The notes below the pieces were generated by a model, which had not been told where the DNA came from, did not search any database, and saw nothing but the letters and a program-made list of their open reading frames with translations. DNA of 58,921 nt, counting the filler. It is 3 parts of 3 records of this genome, joined end to end, with 100 filler letters (N's around TTAATTAATTAA, not from the genome) between each part and the next. Parts side by side here need not be neighbours in the genome. Positions count along the whole stretch, not along the records: positions 52,513 to 58,921 come from SRR22947727_533; 2 more parts are not named here. One strand, written 5' to 3'. Below, one piece after another: positions 52,413-58,921 of the stretch. Positions within the stretch are counted from its first letter, which is position 1. Each line of letters starts with the position of its first letter. Both the position numbers and the translations under genes were made by a program.

Positions 52413-52512
52413 NNNNNNNNNNNNNNNNNNNNNNNNNNNNNNNNNNNNNNNNNNNNTTAATTAATTAANNNNNNNNNNNNNNNNNNNNNNNNNNNNNNNN
52501 NNNNNNNNNNNN
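52413..52512. other. Artificial contig-joining spacer
   Basis: Same N44-TTAATTAATTAA-N44 structure as the first spacer; abrupt rise in GC after it. Confidence 0.98.
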
Positions 52513-53205
52513 GCCTTCGTCATGATCCTCCTCATGGCCTTCTTCATGGTCCTCGTCATGATGTGCACCGATGACCGCACCGTTGGGGATTTCATAATCC
52601 TCCATGTCGACATCTTGATAGCTATAGGTGAGATTCACTCCGCCTAGGTTTCCGCGAAGCGACACGTCAGCTGCTTCGCCGTCATTGACTGACTGGGCTT
52701 CTGCACCCATTGAACCACTAAAAGCGTCGAGGTCCGACTTCGGAATGATGTTGTCGACCACATTCACGATGCCGCCGATCGAGCCATTTGAATACAGCAA
52801 CGCTGAGGGGCCTCGAACGACTTCTACCTGTTGAACATCATTAAGACTGACGTCGACGGCGTGATCTGGACCGAGCGCAGAAACATCACGAACGACCGAG
52901 CCATTATTCAATACTCTGACACGATTGCCGCTCAAACCACGAATGATGGGTTGCCCCACAGCCGCACCGAAATCGGCATATGCCACGCCCAGCAGCGAAT
53001 CGAGGTGCGCGCCCAGTGTCTGAACGCCGTTTTGCTCCAGGGTTTCCTCATCCAATACATAAATGGGCCGTGTCGCCATCGACTCGTTGACCCCAACAAA
53101 TGAGGCCGTGACAATAATTTCTTCTAATAATGTTTCTTCGCTCCCCGCGACCGTCATGGGTATGACGACAACCGCGAGTAGCGCATAAGCTGAAATGCGC
53201 TGCAT
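52513..53205 (-). CDS. TonB-dependent receptor, ZnuD-like, 3'-truncated at contig end
   Basis: Signal peptide, TonB box LEEIIVTAS, plug PIIRGLSGNRVRVL, GPDHAV, RGPSALLY..GSIGGIVNVVD, and His/Asp/Glu-rich HHDEDHEEGHEEDHDEG. Confidence 0.85.
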
Positions 53206-53251
53206 GCTGAACTCCTAAGATAAGCTGTATGGGACGAACTAAGGGTGCTGT

Positions 53252-53536
53252 TCAGCTAATCGGCGGGGCGCGTGCTTGGCAAGCGTATGAAGCGGCTGCA
53301 AATGGCGTAAAGCAGGAAGTGGTATTGAGCAGGGAAGCGAGTGGAGATGGCTCCGTGGGAACCGATGCATCCACTAGAGTGGACTGCTCATCGATACAGT
53401 GAAGGCACTCGACATGACCTTGAGTGACGTCTTCAGAAAAGTCGTGCTCAGCCGCGTGCACCACGTTGGTGGCGACAAAAAATATCGCGACGCAAAGTGC
53501 CAAGCGGCTAAATTTTTTGAGCACGTTGAACGTCAT
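53252..53536 (-). CDS. Small exported His/Cys-rich leader protein ending in RAPP (DUF2946/CruR-like upstream ORF)
   Basis: Probable ATG at 53536 (94 aa); signal peptide, HAAEH, HVECLHC, C-terminal QARAPPIS; 46 nt upstream of the receptor ATG. Confidence 0.75.
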   Translation of the reverse strand: MTFNVLKKFSRLALCVAIFFVATNVVHAAEHDFSEDVTQGHVECLHCIDEQSTLVDASVPTEPSPLASLLNTTSCFTPFAAASYACQARAPPIS

Positions 53537-53675
53537 TGGTTGGCGTCTTGCAGGTGATGGTCTCACTTTAGTCGGGTCTTAGTCGCCAATGCAAGCCCGA
53601 TGGGAAAGTTGACATAATCAACACCAAACTGGGCAGAACGGTCTTGGGGGGGTAATGCAAGCCTTAGTGGCGTAT

Positions 53676-54845
53676 TCAGGCCTTGGTCATGAGCCGGCTG
53701 AAGACACTATCGAATACCTCGAGCTCTTCGAGGCGCCCCATGCTGACGCGAGAGTAATGAGGATAACCGTCATACGCGCCCCGAATCATCACATTATTGG
53801 CCGCCATCTCGTTTTTAAACTCACTCGCGTCACGACCAATATCGGCATAAACAAAATTAGTTTGCGACGGTAATGGCTCAATACCATGCCGCCGGAAGGT
53901 CGCATTCACCATGGCTCGGCCTTGCAGGATCTTTTGCCGAGAAAAAGTAATAAACGCTTCGTCGAGGTAGCTGTGGTAAGCGGCATAAAGACCGACCCCA
54001 TTAGGCCAGGCCATCACATGATCTTTGACCACTTTGACCAGATCGGGGTGTCCCATACCGTACCCCACGCGCAGCCCTGCCATGCCAAAAATTTTTGAGA
54101 ACGTTCGCGTAATAAGGACATTGGCGCCCTCCCGTACCAAATCGACCATCGACGTATAGTCTGGCTTATCGGTGAGCTCGTTATAGGCTTCATCAATCAG
54201 AATCGGTACACGTGGACTGACTTCACGACAAAAGGCGCGTAACTCATCACCGTCGAGGGCCATTCCAGTGGGGTTGTTAGGATTACAGAGATAGACGAGG
54301 CTCACCGTGTCATCCACCGCGCGCGCCATGGCCTCGAGGTCGATACTCATCTCTTCGCGAAGCGGTATGCGAGTGACCTCTACCCCCAAGCGCTCAGCAT
54401 AAGCCAGGTGATCTGAGTAAGTGAGACTAGGTGATATCACCTTGCCTTGCTTGCCGAACGCCATCATAGCCGCCTGCAACCCCTCGTTAGATCCTGAGGC
54501 TAAGAACACCTGATCGGCATCAAGCCGATGGCGCTCCATAAAGAGTGCCGGTAACTCCTGTTCTATTGCGCCCGGGTAGTAAGCTGTTTTCGGCAGAATG
54601 TTAGCGACGGCCTCTAACGCCTTGGCACTGGGGCCATAAGGATTCTCATTGAAAATCAGACGGATTTGACCCTCAGGAATCTCAATTTGGCCCAGCGTAA
54701 AGGGTGATACGGCCAGTCCAGCCGTGCCCAGTAATAATCCCTGTAACGCCGATCGGCGACTCATGCCAACCCCAGAGCACGGCTTATCGCTCGGTAGCGT
54801 GTCAACTGATCTCAGTAAAGGTCCACTGCGGATCTTGTTCAACAT
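53676..54845 (-). CDS. PLP-dependent aminotransferase class I/II (HisC-like) with twin-arginine signal
   Basis: NENPYGPS, YLCNPNNPTG, IDEAY, RTFSKIFGMAGLRVGY; SRRSALQG plus hydrophobic stretch. Probable ATG at 54845 after GAGGGG (alternative 54764). Confidence 0.88.
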   Translation of the reverse strand: MLNKIRSGPLLRSVDTLPSDKPCSGVGMSRRSALQGLLLGTAGLAVSPFTLGQIEIPEGQIRLIFNENPYGPSAKALEAVANILPKTAYYPGAIEQELPALFMERHRLDADQVFLASGSNEGLQAAMMAFGKQGKVISPSLTYSDHLAYAERLGVEVTRIPLREEMSIDLEAMARAVDDTVSLVYLCNPNNPTGMALDGDELRAFCREVSPRVPILIDEAYNELTDKPDYTSMVDLVREGANVLITRTFSKIFGMAGLRVGYGMGHPDLVKVVKDHVMAWPNGVGLYAAYHSYLDEAFITFSRQKILQGRAMVNATFRRHGIEPLPSQTNFVYADIGRDASEFKNEMAANNVMIRGAYDGYPHYSRVSMGRLEELEVFDSVFSRLMTKA

Positions 54846-55232
54846 TCGGACACCCCTCGCTCGCCGCTCGACACACTTCCCTCTCTGAGACGCCATTTGT
54901 CCCGGCGCTCAGAACACACAATGATCATAGCGCTTTTGATCCAATAAGCGAGCGCGCTGGTTATTCAGGTTTTTATTTCAGATAGTGTGCGGGTGCCAGC
55001 AAATGGCGCCTGGCTGATCATCGGACCCGTTTCATTATCATGTGGTGCGGCTAACGCACATGGCTCGCCCCTTATCGTGCGCTCATCTAGACGCAATGTT
55101 CTCGCCTCCCTCTCCACTCATCGGCTCGTTCACCGGCTCAAAACGAGAAGCTATCAGCAATTAGCAGGCCACCCCTCGGTGCTTTCGGTTTATCATATGG
55201 CCTCTCGATGACCGACCGACTAAGGAGTCACC

Positions 55233-56270
55233 ATGGGTGGCCGCAACCCTGTTGCAGATCTAATTGCTGATAAAGGCTGGTGCGTTGCCGACGGCGCAAC
55301 CGGATCAAACTTTTTTGGTCGAGGTCTGGAAGCCGGCTATCCCCCCGAACTGTGGTGTTTAGAAAAACCGGAGGAAGTTGCGGCCTTGCACGACGCGTTT
55401 CTTGATGCCGGCGCCGACCTGATCTTGACCAACAGTTTTGGTGGCAATGCACTGCGGCTCAAGCTGCATGCCTCGGAGCATCGCGTTGCAGAACTCAATA
55501 TCGCCGCCGCTCGACTCGCGAGCGAGGCGACTCAGCGCCACTTTGCCACCACCGGTCGAAAAACCCTCGTCGCGGGGTCAATAGGCCCTACCGGTGAATT
55601 GTTTATGCCCATGGGAATGCTAGATCATAGGCAAGCCTTCGAGGCTTTTTGTGAGCAAGCCACTGCCCTAGCCGACGGGGGTGCAGACGTACTCTGGATA
55701 GAAACGATGTCGTCGACAGAGGAGGTCGCCGCAGCAACCGAGGCGGCGAAGACCACCGGGCTACCCGTCTGCGCCACCTTGTCATTTGACACGGCGAGAT
55801 GCTCAATGATGGGTGTGACACCGGCGGACTTTGCGCAATTCGCGCTGGATATTGAGCTCGACATGCTGGGATCCAATTGCGGAGTCGGTCCTGCTGAACT
55901 CCTCGATTCCACTCAAGGCATCGTGGCTTCTGGTATTGCCCTGCCGATAGTTGCCAAGGGCAACTGTGGTATTCCTCAATATCTCGACGGCGCCATTCAT
56001 TTTCATGGTAGTCCTGAACTGATGGCGCAATATGCACTGTTTGCGCGTGATGTGGGAGCCACGATCATTGGTGGTTGCTGCGGTACGACGCCTGAGCATG
56101 TGGCCGCCATGGTCAACGCCCTAAAAACCACCGCGCCTCGTCCATTCGACGCACACGCGATGAATGACGCGCTGGGTATCCCTTGGGCTAATCTGCCCAC
56201 GCAAGATGAGCAATCAGCTAACTCAGAGACTACCGGCAGGCGGCGACGCAGCCAGCGGCGCGAGCACTGA
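55233..56270 (+). CDS. bmt: Betaine-homocysteine S-methyltransferase-like protein (stand-alone MetH homocysteine-binding domain)
   Basis: RBS TAAGGAG; ADGATGSNFF..GL, ILTNSFGG, AGSIGPTG, GSNCG, KGNCGIP, IIGGCCGTTPEH; Arg-rich tail. Confidence 0.8.
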   Translation: MGGRNPVADLIADKGWCVADGATGSNFFGRGLEAGYPPELWCLEKPEEVAALHDAFLDAGADLILTNSFGGNALRLKLHASEHRVAELNIAAARLASEATQRHFATTGRKTLVAGSIGPTGELFMPMGMLDHRQAFEAFCEQATALADGGADVLWIETMSSTEEVAAATEAAKTTGLPVCATLSFDTARCSMMGVTPADFAQFALDIELDMLGSNCGVGPAELLDSTQGIVASGIALPIVAKGNCGIPQYLDGAIHFHGSPELMAQYALFARDVGATIIGGCCGTTPEHVAAMVNALKTTAPRPFDAHAMNDALGIPWANLPTQDEQSANSETTGRRRRSQRREH

Positions 56271-56319
56271 CACACCCTGCGCCACACGCGTTCATCGCGC
56301 ACTGATCGATATCAGACAT

Positions 56320-56348
56320 AAAAAAACGGCCACATAATGTGGCCGTTT
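56320..56348 (-). terminator. Intrinsic terminator between the convergent bmt and TonB receptor genes
   Basis: AAACGGCCACA-TAA-TGTGGCCGTTT hairpin; the A run at its left end gives a U tract on the minus strand. Confidence 0.85.
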
Positions 56349-56373
56349 CTGGTGCTCACCTTGCCTCGCAGGC

Positions 56374-58803
56374 TTAGAACTCTTGCGACCAACGAATACC
56401 GATTGTCCTAGGCCGCGCTCTTACACCATAGTTCTGCGTACCACAGGTGCCTGTCGCACACTGCGAGGTGTAATACAGCGCAGCATCCTCATCGGTGAGA
56501 TTACTCACGTATAGCTCAACCGCATATTGGTCATTGCGAATACCTGCAGTGACATCCATGAAGGTATTGGCAGGGATCTCACCTTTTACCAAGTTGTCTT
56601 TGACTCTGAGATCCGAATTGCGCTTGCCCTCATGAGAAATAGCCCCTTGAAGATGCGCGTCAAAACCAGCGAGATTAAAGCTATACCGCGCTACTAAGTT
56701 GCCCTTGAACTCAGCAGCGATAGGGAGCTGAGTGCCAGCCGGCGCCCAAGCACCCCCATCTGATTCACAACCTGCGCAGTATTCGTCCTTCAACTCACTG
56801 TCTAAAAACATCACCGATGCTGAGATATTGAAAGAATCCACCGGCAACCATTGAATCTGGCTTTCGATGCCGTTGACGTCTGCAGTCGGACCATTATCAA
56901 CCTGCGTGATGGCATTGGCGCCAACAAAGGATACTTGGAAGTCCTCCCACTCTTGCATGAATGCCGCACCGTTAAACTGGAATCGGCCATCTGCCCAAGT
57001 CGTTTTCCAGCCAAGCTCATAATTCGTCAGGAAGTCTGACACATACTCGCCCGCATCCGGCTTACGGTTAATCCCGCCAGGACGATAGCCCTCTGACCAA
57101 GTACCGTAAATCATATGGTCGTCGGTCATCTTCCACGTCAGGTTGGCACGATAAACAGAGTCGCTCTCTGAAATGCCCTTATCGACATTCTTACAAGGCT
57201 TCCCTTTCCAATCATCCTGGGTGGGGCATTGGGCTTCGCCGGTACCAGACCACACGGGAGTAAAGCCTAGGCCAAATCCATAAAAGCCCTCAACCGATAC
57301 CTCTGGCTTAAAGTAGCGCGCACCCACAGTCGCCTCGAGGCGGTCTGTAATGTCAAAGCTCACGCTGCCAAAATAGGCCTCGTCCTCGTCCTCCCGAAAA
57401 AGGCTATTATAATAGACGATATCTTTGAACTCCGGACTCGCACCCTGGTTGGGCCACATCGACTCAGCGAGCCCCTCGACCAGCCAACGCTGGTCGAAAT
57501 CATGCTCCTGCTTCTGGTAGAAAAAGCCAACCTGAAATCGTACTCGACGATCTTGCGGTGAACTGATGCGTAATTCGTGGCTGGTTTTCTCGTAGCCATC
57601 ATCGTTCACATAACGGGCGCCCGGCATAATGCGGGTGCCCGCGTCGGCAAAGAACATGTTTGGCGCCGACCGATCACCACTATTTAAAAAGTGCAAATCT
57701 GCGTAATAACCCGACGTATAGGCAGTGTCGTACCAATACGAATAATCGGAGTAATCAAAAGACCCATCCACTTCTCGATCCAAATAGGCACCCGCGTAGA
57801 CGACGTCGAAGTCACTGATCTTGCCTTCAACCGTCAGGCCTACCTGATACCATTCGTCATCCGTGAACTCATCCTTGAAGTGCGTCACCGCACTGTCACC
57901 ATCGACAAAATCACTCAGGTCCTCGCCCCAAGAGCCTTTACCCTCTTGCTTCTGGTACTGCACTGTCGGGGTGATTGACCAGTCATCGTTGAGGTTAATC
58001 AACATAGATAAACGGGCGCCTTGGGTTTCGACCGTGTTGTAGTCGTCCTTCGCTACCGCCGCATTGTCTAGAGTGATGTCGTCTGCCGTGGTCGAGGCCA
58101 CACCAGGAAAGGTTCGGGTGCCGCGCTTATTGTCGATCCAGCCCGCATCTTCGCGCATCCACGCTACCAGACGAATGGCGGCGTTCTCGCCGACCGGCGC
58201 GTTGATAAAACCTTCAGCGGTATAGCCGGTATCATTACCGTCGACACTGTTGCCCTCTAAACCATAGCCTGCAGAAAACCCGCTGGGATCAGGCTTGTTG
58301 GTGATGATACGGATCGTGCCCGACTGCGAGCTCGCCCCGTATAAAGTGCCCTGTGGGCCAGACAGCGCCTCGATTCGAGCAATGTCGTACATGTGAATAT
58401 CGAGGTTGCCTTGAATCGTAGTGATCGGCTGCTCGTCGAGATACATGCCTACGCTCGGCTGCGAGGTCGTCGCCTGTCCGTCTCGCCCCGTCGTAACGCC
58501 GCGCATGTAGACATTAAAAAATCCGACACCACCTCCCGCCGGTGGTTGGACAGAGATACTCGGGAGCATCCGTGCGTAATCGTTAAAGTCTTGAATACCC
58601 AGCTCGGCAATTTTCTGGGTGCTCAGCGTCTCGATGCTAATCGGCACGTCCTGCAGGTTTTGAGCTCGCTTTTGAGCGGTCACCACCACTTCTTCGAGGC
58701 CCTGAGCGTATAAGCCAGGGCTTGCAGCGATTAAGGCGGCCACCAGCGGTGTGCGCACAAAGCGTCCAGGGCCATTTCGTGAGGATCGGGGGAAATTCGA
58801 CAT
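56374..58803 (-). CDS. TonB-dependent receptor, substrate unknown
   Basis: Signal peptide, LEEVVVTAQKRAQNLQDVPISI, RIEALSGPQGTLYGASS, terminal Phe (WSQEF). Confidence 0.95.
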   Translation of the reverse strand: MSNFPRSSRNGPGRFVRTPLVAALIAASPGLYAQGLEEVVVTAQKRAQNLQDVPISIETLSTQKIAELGIQDFNDYARMLPSISVQPPAGGGVGFFNVYMRGVTTGRDGQATTSQPSVGMYLDEQPITTIQGNLDIHMYDIARIEALSGPQGTLYGASSQSGTIRIITNKPDPSGFSAGYGLEGNSVDGNDTGYTAEGFINAPVGENAAIRLVAWMREDAGWIDNKRGTRTFPGVASTTADDITLDNAAVAKDDYNTVETQGARLSMLINLNDDWSITPTVQYQKQEGKGSWGEDLSDFVDGDSAVTHFKDEFTDDEWYQVGLTVEGKISDFDVVYAGAYLDREVDGSFDYSDYSYWYDTAYTSGYYADLHFLNSGDRSAPNMFFADAGTRIMPGARYVNDDGYEKTSHELRISSPQDRRVRFQVGFFYQKQEHDFDQRWLVEGLAESMWPNQGASPEFKDIVYYNSLFREDEDEAYFGSVSFDITDRLEATVGARYFKPEVSVEGFYGFGLGFTPVWSGTGEAQCPTQDDWKGKPCKNVDKGISESDSVYRANLTWKMTDDHMIYGTWSEGYRPGGINRKPDAGEYVSDFLTNYELGWKTTWADGRFQFNGAAFMQEWEDFQVSFVGANAITQVDNGPTADVNGIESQIQWLPVDSFNISASVMFLDSELKDEYCAGCESDGGAWAPAGTQLPIAAEFKGNLVARYSFNLAGFDAHLQGAISHEGKRNSDLRVKDNLVKGEIPANTFMDVTAGIRNDQYAVELYVSNLTDEDAALYYTSQCATGTCGTQNYGVRARPRTIGIRWSQEF

Positions 58804-58921
58804 AATAACTGGGCTCCAGTAGTTACATTCACTTCTTGAAAAGCGCGGTCTCGAGAAAAAGACCCGCCATGAACTAAGGGCAAGTTACTATTTTTGACCG
58901 CTTTTTGCTACCCGCAAAGTA

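Follow-up and report, generated by a model that had tools for sequence, protein, structure and literature searches.

A conserved RAPP leader peptide ahead of a ZnuD-like TonB receptor in Halieaceae: a candidate metal-sensing arrest unit

Metal control by a nascent peptide has so far been shown only for copper, in the systems CruR and CutF. The subject of this work is a 58,921-nt stretch of DNA (the window), in which a small open reading frame (ORF) of 94 amino acids (aa) with a C-terminal RAPP motif precedes the gene of a ZnuD-like TonB-dependent receptor. CruR of Bordetella pertussis (Bp2923, a DUF2946 protein) is encoded by a copper-responsive upstream ORF (uORF) ahead of the gene for the TonB transporter BfrG/CrtA (PMC9426467). 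Its RAPP motif is needed for regulation (PMC9426467) and causes arrest in vitro, with the first proline in the P site and the second in the A site according to the toeprint (PMC12992588). Elongation arrest with peptidyl-tRNA at the Pro-Pro codons, lost on changing RAPP to AAPP, has been demonstrated for CruR, ApdA and ApdP (PMC12992588). The output of CruR is Rho termination over a 162-nt spacer, and the system is functional without the signal peptide (PMC9426467). The cruR/crtA loci are typified by PepSY_TM, PCuAC, YcnI and Sco neighbours, and more than 75% of them have PepSY_TM (PMC12914433). CutF of Rhodobacter capsulatus is a DUF2946-like protein encoded upstream of the multicopper oxidase gene cutO, where a stem-loop shields the Shine-Dalgarno sequence; CutF needs its signal peptide, and copper prolongs its stalling, by which the detoxifying oxidase is induced (PMC9973294).

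A catalogue published in EMBO J in 2025 found RAPP/RGPP uORFs with signal peptides to be strongly enriched upstream of TonB-dependent receptors (PMC12992588). Its supplement counts 5450 RAPP uORFs before genes named 'TonB-dependent receptor' versus 722 AAPP controls (PMC12992588). The word 'zinc' has no occurrence in the main text of that paper, and six strings specific to the leader family described here are absent from the examined part of its supplement. Published supplements may, nonetheless, already list members of the family. The searched literature, judged by the papers listed and the opening lines of their abstracts, describes no zinc-type case of a RAPP arrest leader at a TonB receptor, and the original prediction for this locus, that no ZnuD-type example had been characterised, holds within it.

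On balance, the leader and the receptor of the window probably form one metal-sensing arrest unit of the CruR/CutF/SecM kind, with zinc as the probable metal. That the leader is a regulatory RAPP arrest leader is highly likely. The leader itself was confirmed by direct reading of the minus strand as a 94-aa ORF with HAAEH at residues 27-31, HVECLHC at residues 41-47 and RAPP at residues 89-92, followed by Ile, Ser and the stop codon. The ORF starts with the ATG at 53536-53534 and is closed by the TGA at 53254-53252; an alternative in-frame GTG at 53566 would give a leader of 104 aa. The start coordinate originally assigned to the feature (52513) turned out to be an N of a contig joint. The parts of the leader are as follows.

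53252..53536, minus strand: leader ORF, 94 aa and TGA stop (direct reading; homologues).
53453..53536, minus strand: predicted Sec signal peptide, residues 1-28, with K7, K8 and R11, a hydrophobic core and the site V-H-A/A-E-H (judged by eye).
53396..53458, minus strand: candidate metal-ligand cluster, H27 to C47 (leader alignments).
53273..53395, minus strand: spacer, residues 48-88, variable in sequence, fixed at 41 aa, predicted to be disordered (alignment and pLDDT, the predicted local distance difference test).
53261..53272, minus strand: RAPP codons CGC GCC CCG CCG, where arrest presumably occurs, Pro91 occupying the P site and Pro92 the A site.

The placement of the two prolines is borrowed from the CruR toeprint (PMC12992588). 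The signal peptide that had been predicted is recognisable by eye from its K/R n-region, its core and its cleavage-type site. A spacer had been predicted as well and is present, but it measures 41 aa from C47 to R89 instead of ~50. The AlphaFold2 model consists of one long helix and a disordered spacer: residues 1-30 form a confident helix (pLDDT 81-94), residues 48-84 fall below 50, and the mean of 60.8 means low confidence overall. The model is uninformative on the metal site.

Homologues of the leader were found in several collections. A word-indexed protein search gave three related clusters of 94 aa each. A HMMER search with a 4-sequence profile against 1.84 billion representatives gave 8 proteins at E <= 0.001; six are exactly 94 aa, one is longer through an upstream start call, and two of the 8 (91 and 74 aa) are without the C-terminus. 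Scans of DNA placed the leader at 8 metagenome loci and 9 genome loci, and all the named genome loci are Luminiphilus or Halieaceae metagenome-assembled genomes. The leader profile matched 44 of 301 Halieaceae genomes at E <= 0.01. Twenty of the 44 belong to subfamily 1 (E <= 2.3e-31), 18 lie between 1.2e-8 and 7.5e-4, those inspected being subfamily 2 with leaders of ~88 aa, and the other 6 are weaker matches. A precomputed Pfam domain is lacking from all 55 related protein clusters, whose only name is 'hypothetical protein'.

Thirty-three distinct leaders were aligned, 23 of subfamily 1 and 10 of subfamily 2. Residues A17, H27, H31, C44, C47, R89, A90, P91 and P92 are invariant in all 33, while E30, D32, Q39, H41, E43 and H46 are conserved within subfamily 1. 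The subfamily-1 leaders are without exception 94 aa long with a CxxC-to-RAPP gap of exactly 41 (23/23), and the gap is exactly 40 in subfamily 2 (10/10). The spacer itself is hypervariable, with hardly any conserved residue, and RAPP is followed by two residues and the stop codon in every leader. The Arg codon of RAPP is CGC in 20 leaders, CGT in 9, AGG in 2 and AGA in 2; all four codons are in use for the Ala and for each Pro, and both synonymous codons occur at each of H27, H31, C44 and C47. Invariant residues with such synonymous variation indicate that selection acts on the translated peptide. The motifs exceed chance, and judging from the alignment the ends of the peptide matter in sequence and the middle only in length. 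Loss of RAPP and CxxC in orthologous leaders had been named beforehand as grounds for giving up the original prediction; both proved invariant together with HxxxH, at a fixed spacer length.

In a class-wide sample of 400 genomes, the leader profile matched 8 at E <= 0.001, including G002 (G and L numbers are our handles for genomes and loci). Five of the other seven loci were inspected, L122 and L125 (in-frame stops) being left out. L119 (G342:C6), from a gammaproteobacterium of ~0.9 Mb outside the Halieaceae sample, has an AT-rich version of the device: the leader reads HEISHD...ECHVC, has a 40-residue gap and ends with SRAPPLV, and 47 nt separate it from a receptor rich in E/H/D runs. The other four loci have CxxC-RAPP leaders before other genes or before receptors without visible H/D/E runs, as judged on part of the receptor only. 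A third leader subfamily (…SEHL..DC…CAQC…HFYARAPPAQ) was seen at L110 (G004:C113), L097 and L111 (G297:C14). These leaders precede a receptor paralogue that is 66-69% identical, and a Zur-like palindrome lies upstream of the leader.

The family could not be assigned to DUF2946. Pfam and NCBIfam searches returned nothing for the window leader, DUF2946 (PF11162, gathering score 23.7 bits) giving no match even at E <= 1. Among 10 relatives, DUF2946 had 4 sub-threshold matches (best E 0.022) and DUF2607 had 1 (E 0.12). The search with these two models, suggested as a check on the original prediction, thus gave a negative result for the leader of the window. When the 301 Halieaceae genomes were searched in six frames with PF11162, 29 matched, none of which carries this leader family. 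Alignment of the 33 leaders with 7 DUF2946-type proteins by hhalign joined only 10 columns around RAPP (probability 59.8%), a weak test because the latter set is small. CxxC and RAPP at a conserved spacing behind a predicted export signal, as in the DUF2946 proteins CruR and CutF, occur in 33/33 leaders, and so does the arrangement predicted for RAPP arrest peptides, R-A-P-P near the C-terminus of a small ORF before a gene. The leader heads a metal-homeostasis unit at 17/17 scanned loci and at 28/33 receptor loci. It would seem to work like CruR and CutF, yet it is not placed in their Pfam family.

The following features belong to the receptor.

52514..53205, minus strand: N-terminal 230 codons of the ZnuD-like TonB-dependent receptor (plug and first H/D/E-rich loop), cut by the contig joint.
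53212..53216, minus strand: Shine-Dalgarno sequence AGGAG of the receptor, 6 nt before the ATG (GGAG invariant in alignments).

A TonB receptor 46 nt downstream of the leader had been predicted. The intergenic distance is exactly 46 nt, but the receptor is truncated in the window at 52514. Its ATG is at 53205, the fragment ends in HHDEDHEEGHEEDHDEG, and Pfam Plug is recognised in it (5.9e-17). The full-length sequence of 804 aa was taken from the near-identical locus L003; it holds 9 runs of at least 5 consecutive H/D/E, the longest of 23. The top NCBIfam family is ZnuD (NF038289), with 223 bits for the L003 orthologue, 207 for a subfamily-2 receptor and 399 for the receptor at L063, in all three cases below the curated cut-off of 950 bits. 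The TonB-copper model scores 38-52 bits on these receptors versus 207-399 for ZnuD. The best solved relative is ZnuD 4rdr (E 2.5e-37), and the next best has 9.7e-09. By these comparisons, the protein has a TonB-dependent plug and barrel with H/D/E-rich runs and its nearest solved structure is ZnuD; the leader-linked receptors are classed as distant ZnuD relatives, not equivalogs.

Leader and receptor go together. At 17/17 loci from two collection scans, the leader is followed by an H/D/E-run-rich receptor of 770-807 aa. The distance between them is 39-49 nt across the 33 leaders when starts are placed by the Shine-Dalgarno sequence, a value of 31 nt at L013 being an effect of an upstream start call. 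A receptor orthologue (E <= 1e-80) is present in 51 of the 301 Halieaceae genomes, all of them small (1.7-2.9 Mb). A survey of the ORFs upstream of such receptors had been proposed with the original prediction, and it upheld the coupling to a His/Asp/Glu-rich ZnuD-like receptor. It covered 33 loci with at least 391 nt upstream, two more with only 2 nt upstream being dropped: 28 have an intact RAPP leader, 1 has RARP (L111) and 4 are without a leader. One of the 28, L114, is partly masked by Ns and shows ...FKARAPPLS. The other neighbour genes vary and are not metal-related (Tat-signal aminotransferase, alpha/beta hydrolase, P450, MFS exporter and others), so the conserved unit is leader plus receptor.

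The RNA features around the junction are listed next.

53206..53256, minus strand: intergenic region and flanks, where GCUGAAC (53256-53250) can pair with GUUCAGC (53212-53206).
53283..53360, minus strand: tract rich in C (0.42) and poor in G (0.14), a candidate rut site for the loading of Rho (composition).
53565..53594, minus strand: weak promoter candidate, TTGCAT-18 nt-TAAAGT, ending 28 nt ahead of the ATG of the leader (by eye).

A consensus scan of 53100-53800 for promoters and terminators gave no site: the candidate promoter did not pass, and no intrinsic terminator was found between leader and receptor. At the junction, GCUGAAC consists of the last sense codon, the stop codon and 2 nt, and GUUCAGC of the last Shine-Dalgarno G and the spacer to the AUG. 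Across the family, a stable fold involves the stop codon and the Shine-Dalgarno sequence. Folds were computed for 31 distinct sequences, each running from the codon ahead of RAPP to the ninth base after the receptor AUG, and compared with dinucleotide shuffles; 28 of the 31 are more stable at z <= -2 and 18 at z <= -3 (median -3.18). The leader stop codon is paired in 31/31 minimum-energy structures and at least 3 of the 4 GGAG bases in 26/31. In 23/31 the Shine-Dalgarno partners lie at most 16 nt from the first Pro codon, so a ribosome held at RAPP would cover them. A second, independent folding tool gave z <= -2.35 at 7/9 loci.

In the largest clade, GGAGGCG has as its partner the codons for Pro-Pro-Leu, CCGCCUCU, the codons for Ala-Arg-Ala pair with AUG-CGG-CGC, and a hairpin CAG-C-UGAAC...GUUCA-CUG spans the stop codon. 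In the 16-sequence alignment of this clade, 94% of cells are paired versus 28-49% for slid partners, and one hairpin pair switches between C-G, U-A and A-U at a synonymous site. Other clades form equivalent hairpins from different sequences, e.g., CCUAAGUUUUAAGU...ACUUAAAACUUAGG in subfamily 2. Because clades use different arms, RNAalifold on an 11-sequence MAFFT alignment yields a weak consensus (-6.6 kcal/mol).

As for the metal, the genomes themselves offer a lead. Fur is present in each of five leader-bearing genomes, and three of them carry another gene of the Fur family, which matches the Zur model best, at a score below its cut-off. Upstream of this Zur-like gene stands, in 3/3 genomes, the palindrome AAAnGATAYnnKGTATCnTTT (in a shorter form, ATGATAYnnKGTATCAT). 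The operon of the Zur-like gene also encodes MerC-like, ZrgA-family and DUF3299 proteins, and G138 has a second copy of the palindrome before a COG0523 (CobW) GTPase gene. COG0523, ZrgA and the like are hallmark genes of Zur regulons. At no more than 1 mismatch, the five genomes contain the palindrome only at these sites and upstream of the receptor paralogue, and a reversed control pattern had no match in the same genomes. The candidate operator sites are L077:1959-1979, L078:1394-1414, L079:1947-1967 and 998-1018, and G138:C1:307356-307372.

With up to 3 mismatches, the palindrome is found at 9/33 receptor loci. It is present at all 4 leaderless loci, 128-170 nt upstream of the receptor, and at 4 loci whose leader is intact; there its place is ahead of the leader ORF, at 384-386 nt from the receptor start in three cases and at 203 nt in the remaining one. 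The RARP locus L111 also has it. The remaining 24/33 loci have the leader and no palindrome. The locus of the window, which was scanned separately, lacks the palindrome and is of this leader-only type. Three types of locus, operator only, operator plus leader and leader only, thus exist in living genomes, and G004 carries both a leader-only copy and an operator-plus-leader copy. The leaderless paralogues with the palindrome are L098, L099, L100 and L106; at L100, a short frame ending ...SSRAPPGP just upstream of the receptor is possibly the remnant of a lost leader.

The palindrome is presumably a Zur operator, given its position before the Zur-like and COG0523 genes, and the way it is distributed links the receptor family with what is presumably the zinc regulon. 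This suggests that the leader is a second control layer and, in most lineages, the only one. The device is proposed to add to, or to replace, Zur-type repression of the receptor family in this lineage. The statement that no Zur box is visible upstream stands for the window, both for this palindrome and for an enterobacterial-type Zur consensus (TGTTATnnTATAACA). The latter, at up to 3 mismatches, had 38 matches versus 43.9 expected and none within 52514-58921. Nothing in common turned up when the regions upstream of 9 leaders were searched for simple palindromes. The original guess of zinc gained support from the palindrome shared by the Zur-like gene (3/3), the COG0523 gene and 9/33 receptor loci. 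His2Cys2 is, moreover, a classic zinc ligand set. The distribution of the palindrome is, however, no proof that the leader itself senses zinc, and our confidence that zinc is the metal of the leader is evenly balanced.

Taken together, these observations would fit the following mechanism. The leader would be translated and targeted for export, and the ribosome would arrest at R89-A90-P91-P92, two codons before the stop. The arrested ribosome would cover the last leader codons and the stop codon and keep the stop-codon hairpin and the pairing of the start region melted, leaving the ribosome-binding site of the receptor open for synthesis of the ZnuD-like protein. Stalled and queued ribosomes may also shield the C-rich tract, part of which the arrested ribosome would cover, from Rho, and transcription would then continue into the receptor gene. 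Plentiful metal, most likely Zn2+, would bind the H27/H31/C44/C47 cluster, 41 residues from the arrest point; the nascent chain would compact or be pulled, and the arrest would be released. The ribosome would then terminate two codons on, the mRNA would refold, and receptor synthesis would fall. A metal response of the leader is suggested by the invariant His2Cys2 cluster at a fixed tether length. There are good grounds to expect that metal releases rather than prolongs the arrest, because an uptake receptor should fall when metal is plentiful. In SecM, a stalled ribosome unmasks the downstream ribosome-binding site, and an output mainly through such unmasking is slightly favoured here. We infer the arrest itself, the sensed metal, the compartment and the sign of the response from the observed anatomy, conservation, coupling, fold and operator link. 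As far as sequence analysis reaches, the interpretation of the locus as a CruR-like device at a zinc-type receptor is supported.

Several observations count against the locus being a zinc-responsive arrest unit that acts through its mRNA fold. Covariation within the best-sampled clade is thin (2 pairs). The fold of the window itself is no better than shuffles (z +0.68, -0.34 and -0.09) and is the weakest copy, its only clear element being the GCUGAAC-GUUCAGC pairing; the folds of L016 and L034 are also weak. The unpaired probability of the Shine-Dalgarno sequence is not reduced relative to controls in which the 5' part was shuffled (mean fraction 0.59), and the duplex energy of the native codons, compared with synonymous recodings, has a median percentile of 0.24, with 0/33 at or below 0.05. 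Hints from RNA libraries are weak: in two metatranscriptome-labelled runs of one study, contigs span the aminotransferase gene, the leader and the receptor start, and another study contributes one run with two pieces of 151 nt, confined to the leader and at depth 2, but DNA carry-over is possible and the contigs do not show ends and strand. The leader-like ORF of L111, whose record includes Ns, has RARP where RAPP would be expected. At arrest, C44 and C47 would be ~44-47 residues from the peptidyl-transferase centre and H27 and H31 ~60-64, and with such different distances a single four-ligand site in one compartment is not assured. The predicted mature N-terminus is X-X-His in 33/33 leaders, and the combination of CxxC with RAPP has so far been a copper signature. 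At the four loci with both box and intact leader, the leader might sense something that Zur does not; where operator and leader coexist, it could report another metal or compartment.

The controls on the fold bear on a different output, in which the locus would act mainly by Rho-dependent termination as in CruR and the Shine-Dalgarno pairing would be a by-product of the RAPP codons. We consider this somewhat unlikely. Rho is the demonstrated mechanism in the closest characterised system, CruR, where a C>G region is assigned the Rho loading role (PMC9426467); the 3' half of the window leader is alike in composition. Ranked by C>G skew among 12,662 windows of 78 nt from the contig, its C-rich tract stands at the 99.97th percentile, and a comparable tract lies at or above the 99.7th percentile in 9/9 related loci, although the C-richness may follow from a Pro/Ser/Thr/Ala-rich spacer. 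The shuffle and synonymous-codon controls gave no excess of Shine-Dalgarno complementarity, native RAPP-region codons pairing with the ribosome-binding site only ~1 standard deviation better than recoded ones. The intergenic distance, on the other hand, is only 39-49 nt versus 162 nt in cruR, and the stop-codon hairpin is kept across clades from different sequences, with 28/31 segments beating their shuffles. The output resembles the CutF or SecM type of ribosome-binding-site masking more closely than the Rho termination of CruR. Rho termination and unmasking of the ribosome-binding site are not mutually exclusive.

Selected anti-Shine-Dalgarno complementarity was dropped as a candidate after the accessibility and recoding controls. 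Since synonymous recodings pair almost equally, the R-A-P-P codons (CGN/AGR GCN CCN CCN) are anti-Shine-Dalgarno by composition. Masking of the Shine-Dalgarno sequence may therefore come free with the RAPP codons rather than by selection. The complementarity of the codons may in part account for the frequent closeness of RAPP leaders to the gene that follows.

The same device could serve another metal: the leader would sense copper (or nickel/cobalt) and the receptor would import that metal or a chelate of it. This is unlikely but has several points in its favour. CxxC with a C-terminal RAPP is the signature of CruR and DUF2946, whose characterised ligand is copper, and the weak DUF2946 matches in 4/10 family members point the same way. 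The X-X-His N-terminus common to all 33 leaders resembles the amino-terminal copper- and nickel-binding (ATCUN) pattern, which binds Cu(II) and Ni(II), and copper-related downstream genes dominate in the published RAPP-uORF table. The receptor, however, has ZnuD as its best family and solved relative, and the TonB-copper model reaches only 38-52 bits on it. The PepSY_TM, PCuAC, YcnI and Sco neighbours were not found at two annotated loci, the receptor family has an operator in common with Zur-like, COG0523 and ZrgA genes, and the invariant ligands are a His2Cys2 set, which is classic for zinc.

It is also conceivable, though very improbable, that the leader is a small secreted metal-binding peptide, i.e., a periplasmic chaperone or a metallophore-like partner, with a RAPP that has no regulatory role. 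An export signal, conserved His and Cys and an adjoining metal receptor would suit such a peptide. Only the ligand cluster and RAPP are conserved, however; the spacer is free in sequence, exact in length and predicted to be disordered, the distance from RAPP to the stop codon is exactly two codons in each of the 33 leaders, and the CruR and CutF proteins were undetectable or rapidly degraded (PMC9426467, PMC9973294). A secretion monitor of the SecM/ApdA/ApdP kind, reporting Sec activity and not metal, shares the signal peptide as well as the RAPP at the C-terminus of ApdA and ApdP but is barely credible, as the downstream gene is a TonB receptor and not a Sec/YidC component at every locus examined and the invariant His/Cys cluster at its fixed tether would have no role.

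Some observations on the rest of the locus were made. The gene immediately upstream of the leader (53676-54896, minus strand) encodes a 406-aa class I/II aminotransferase whose signal (RRSALQGLLLGTAGLAV) is of the twin-arginine type. The protein resembles the periplasmic pyoverdine transaminase PtaA (205 bits, below cut-off), and its gene has the same position at 5/9 related loci. Further upstream are a homocysteine S-methyltransferase gene (55233-56270, plus strand) and a gene for a second, unrelated TonB-dependent receptor of 809 aa (56374-58803, minus strand), both of them syntenic in L003 and L008/L009. Elsewhere, in G247, a 93-aa DUF2946-type leader (HSHADHDDATHCVAC ... IRGPPPVS; L063:3083-3364, minus strand) precedes the closer ZnuD relative, which scores 399 bits end to end. 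RGPP-type leaders thus also head zinc-type receptors in Halieaceae.

The window is a composite. Positions 52414-52513 are Ns around TTAATTAATTAA and form the joint between two contigs, and the GC content is ~33% up to 52413 versus ~53% over 52514-58921. The leader sits on the right-hand piece, which matches Luminiphilus/Halieaceae loci, and is without a match in the nearest genome compared, G001 (1.0 Mb). The kinship of G001 is probably with the AT-rich contigs alone, and the assembly or bin may mix two organisms.

A zinc version of nascent-peptide control, if true, would extend the principle to a metal with textbook Zur repression. We put forward tentatively that the leader is the first zinc-sensing nascent peptide, with a His2Cys2 Zn2+ site 41 residues from RAPP that was layered on Zur control and then replaced it in streamlined marine Luminiphilus-like bacteria. 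In work with ADR1a and SecM, arrest was reportedly relieved when a small domain folded, dependent on zinc, close to the exit of the ribosome, and a zinc leader would be the natural counterpart of these laboratory experiments. The carriers are abundant coastal and oceanic Halieaceae, and zinc is scarce in their habitat; tuning of an H/D/E-rich receptor therefore bears on marine trace-metal uptake. The system comes with built-in tests: the four ligands are invariant, the tether is exact in length but free in sequence, the RNA switch is short, and at sister loci a Zur-like operator replaces or accompanies the leader. Should the metal be copper or nickel, the leaders would still be a distinct CruR-like family missed by Pfam.

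Among the known systems, CruR is the closest. Both leaders are the first gene of their unit, carry an export signal and CxxC, and have their RAPP a few residues from the end; the CxxC-to-RAPP spacing is conserved, at 45 aa in CruR and 41/40 in the Halieaceae leaders, a TonB metal transporter follows, and no metalloregulator box is present at the promoter. By analogy, the expected logic would also be the same, with metal relieving the arrest and uptake falling. In contrast to CruR, the leader has 94 aa instead of 145 and two extra invariant His, and a 46-nt intergenic region with a stop-codon hairpin and Shine-Dalgarno pairing takes the place of 162 nt. The receptor is ZnuD-like and not CrtA-like, no PepSY_TM gene follows, and the metal is probably zinc. 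With CutF, the leader shares a predicted Sec export signal, a Cys motif and a proline-rich C-terminus, as well as a short intergenic RNA structure, which in CutF shields the downstream Shine-Dalgarno sequence and which a stalled ribosome is proposed to open. It differs by its CxxC and canonical RAPP, where CutF has CxxxC and a weaker stalling motif, and the opposite sign of response would be expected of an uptake receptor.

The C-terminal RAPP/RAGP arrest chemistry is common to SecM, ApdA and ApdP; these report translocation and control Sec components, whereas the present leader has a metal-ligand cluster and a metal receptor. It resembles the uORFs catalogued in PMC12992588 as a small signal-peptide ORF with C-terminal RAPP ahead of a TonB receptor; for such cases, that paper does not analyse the ligand residues, the length of the tether, the RNA structure or Zur boxes. 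ZnuD, the Zur-regulated zinc piracy receptor of Neisseria meningitidis (PDB 4rdr), appears similar to the receptor in its His/Asp-rich surface loops, and receptor paralogues in the same bacterial family carry the Zur-like operator. The Halieaceae receptor has far more and longer H/D/E runs, and the window copy has a leader peptide and no operator. What appears to be new with respect to all of these is a distinct leader family in which a His2Cys2 set, a 40-41-residue tether and a short RNA switch stand before a ZnuD-type receptor, in exchange with a Zur-like operator.

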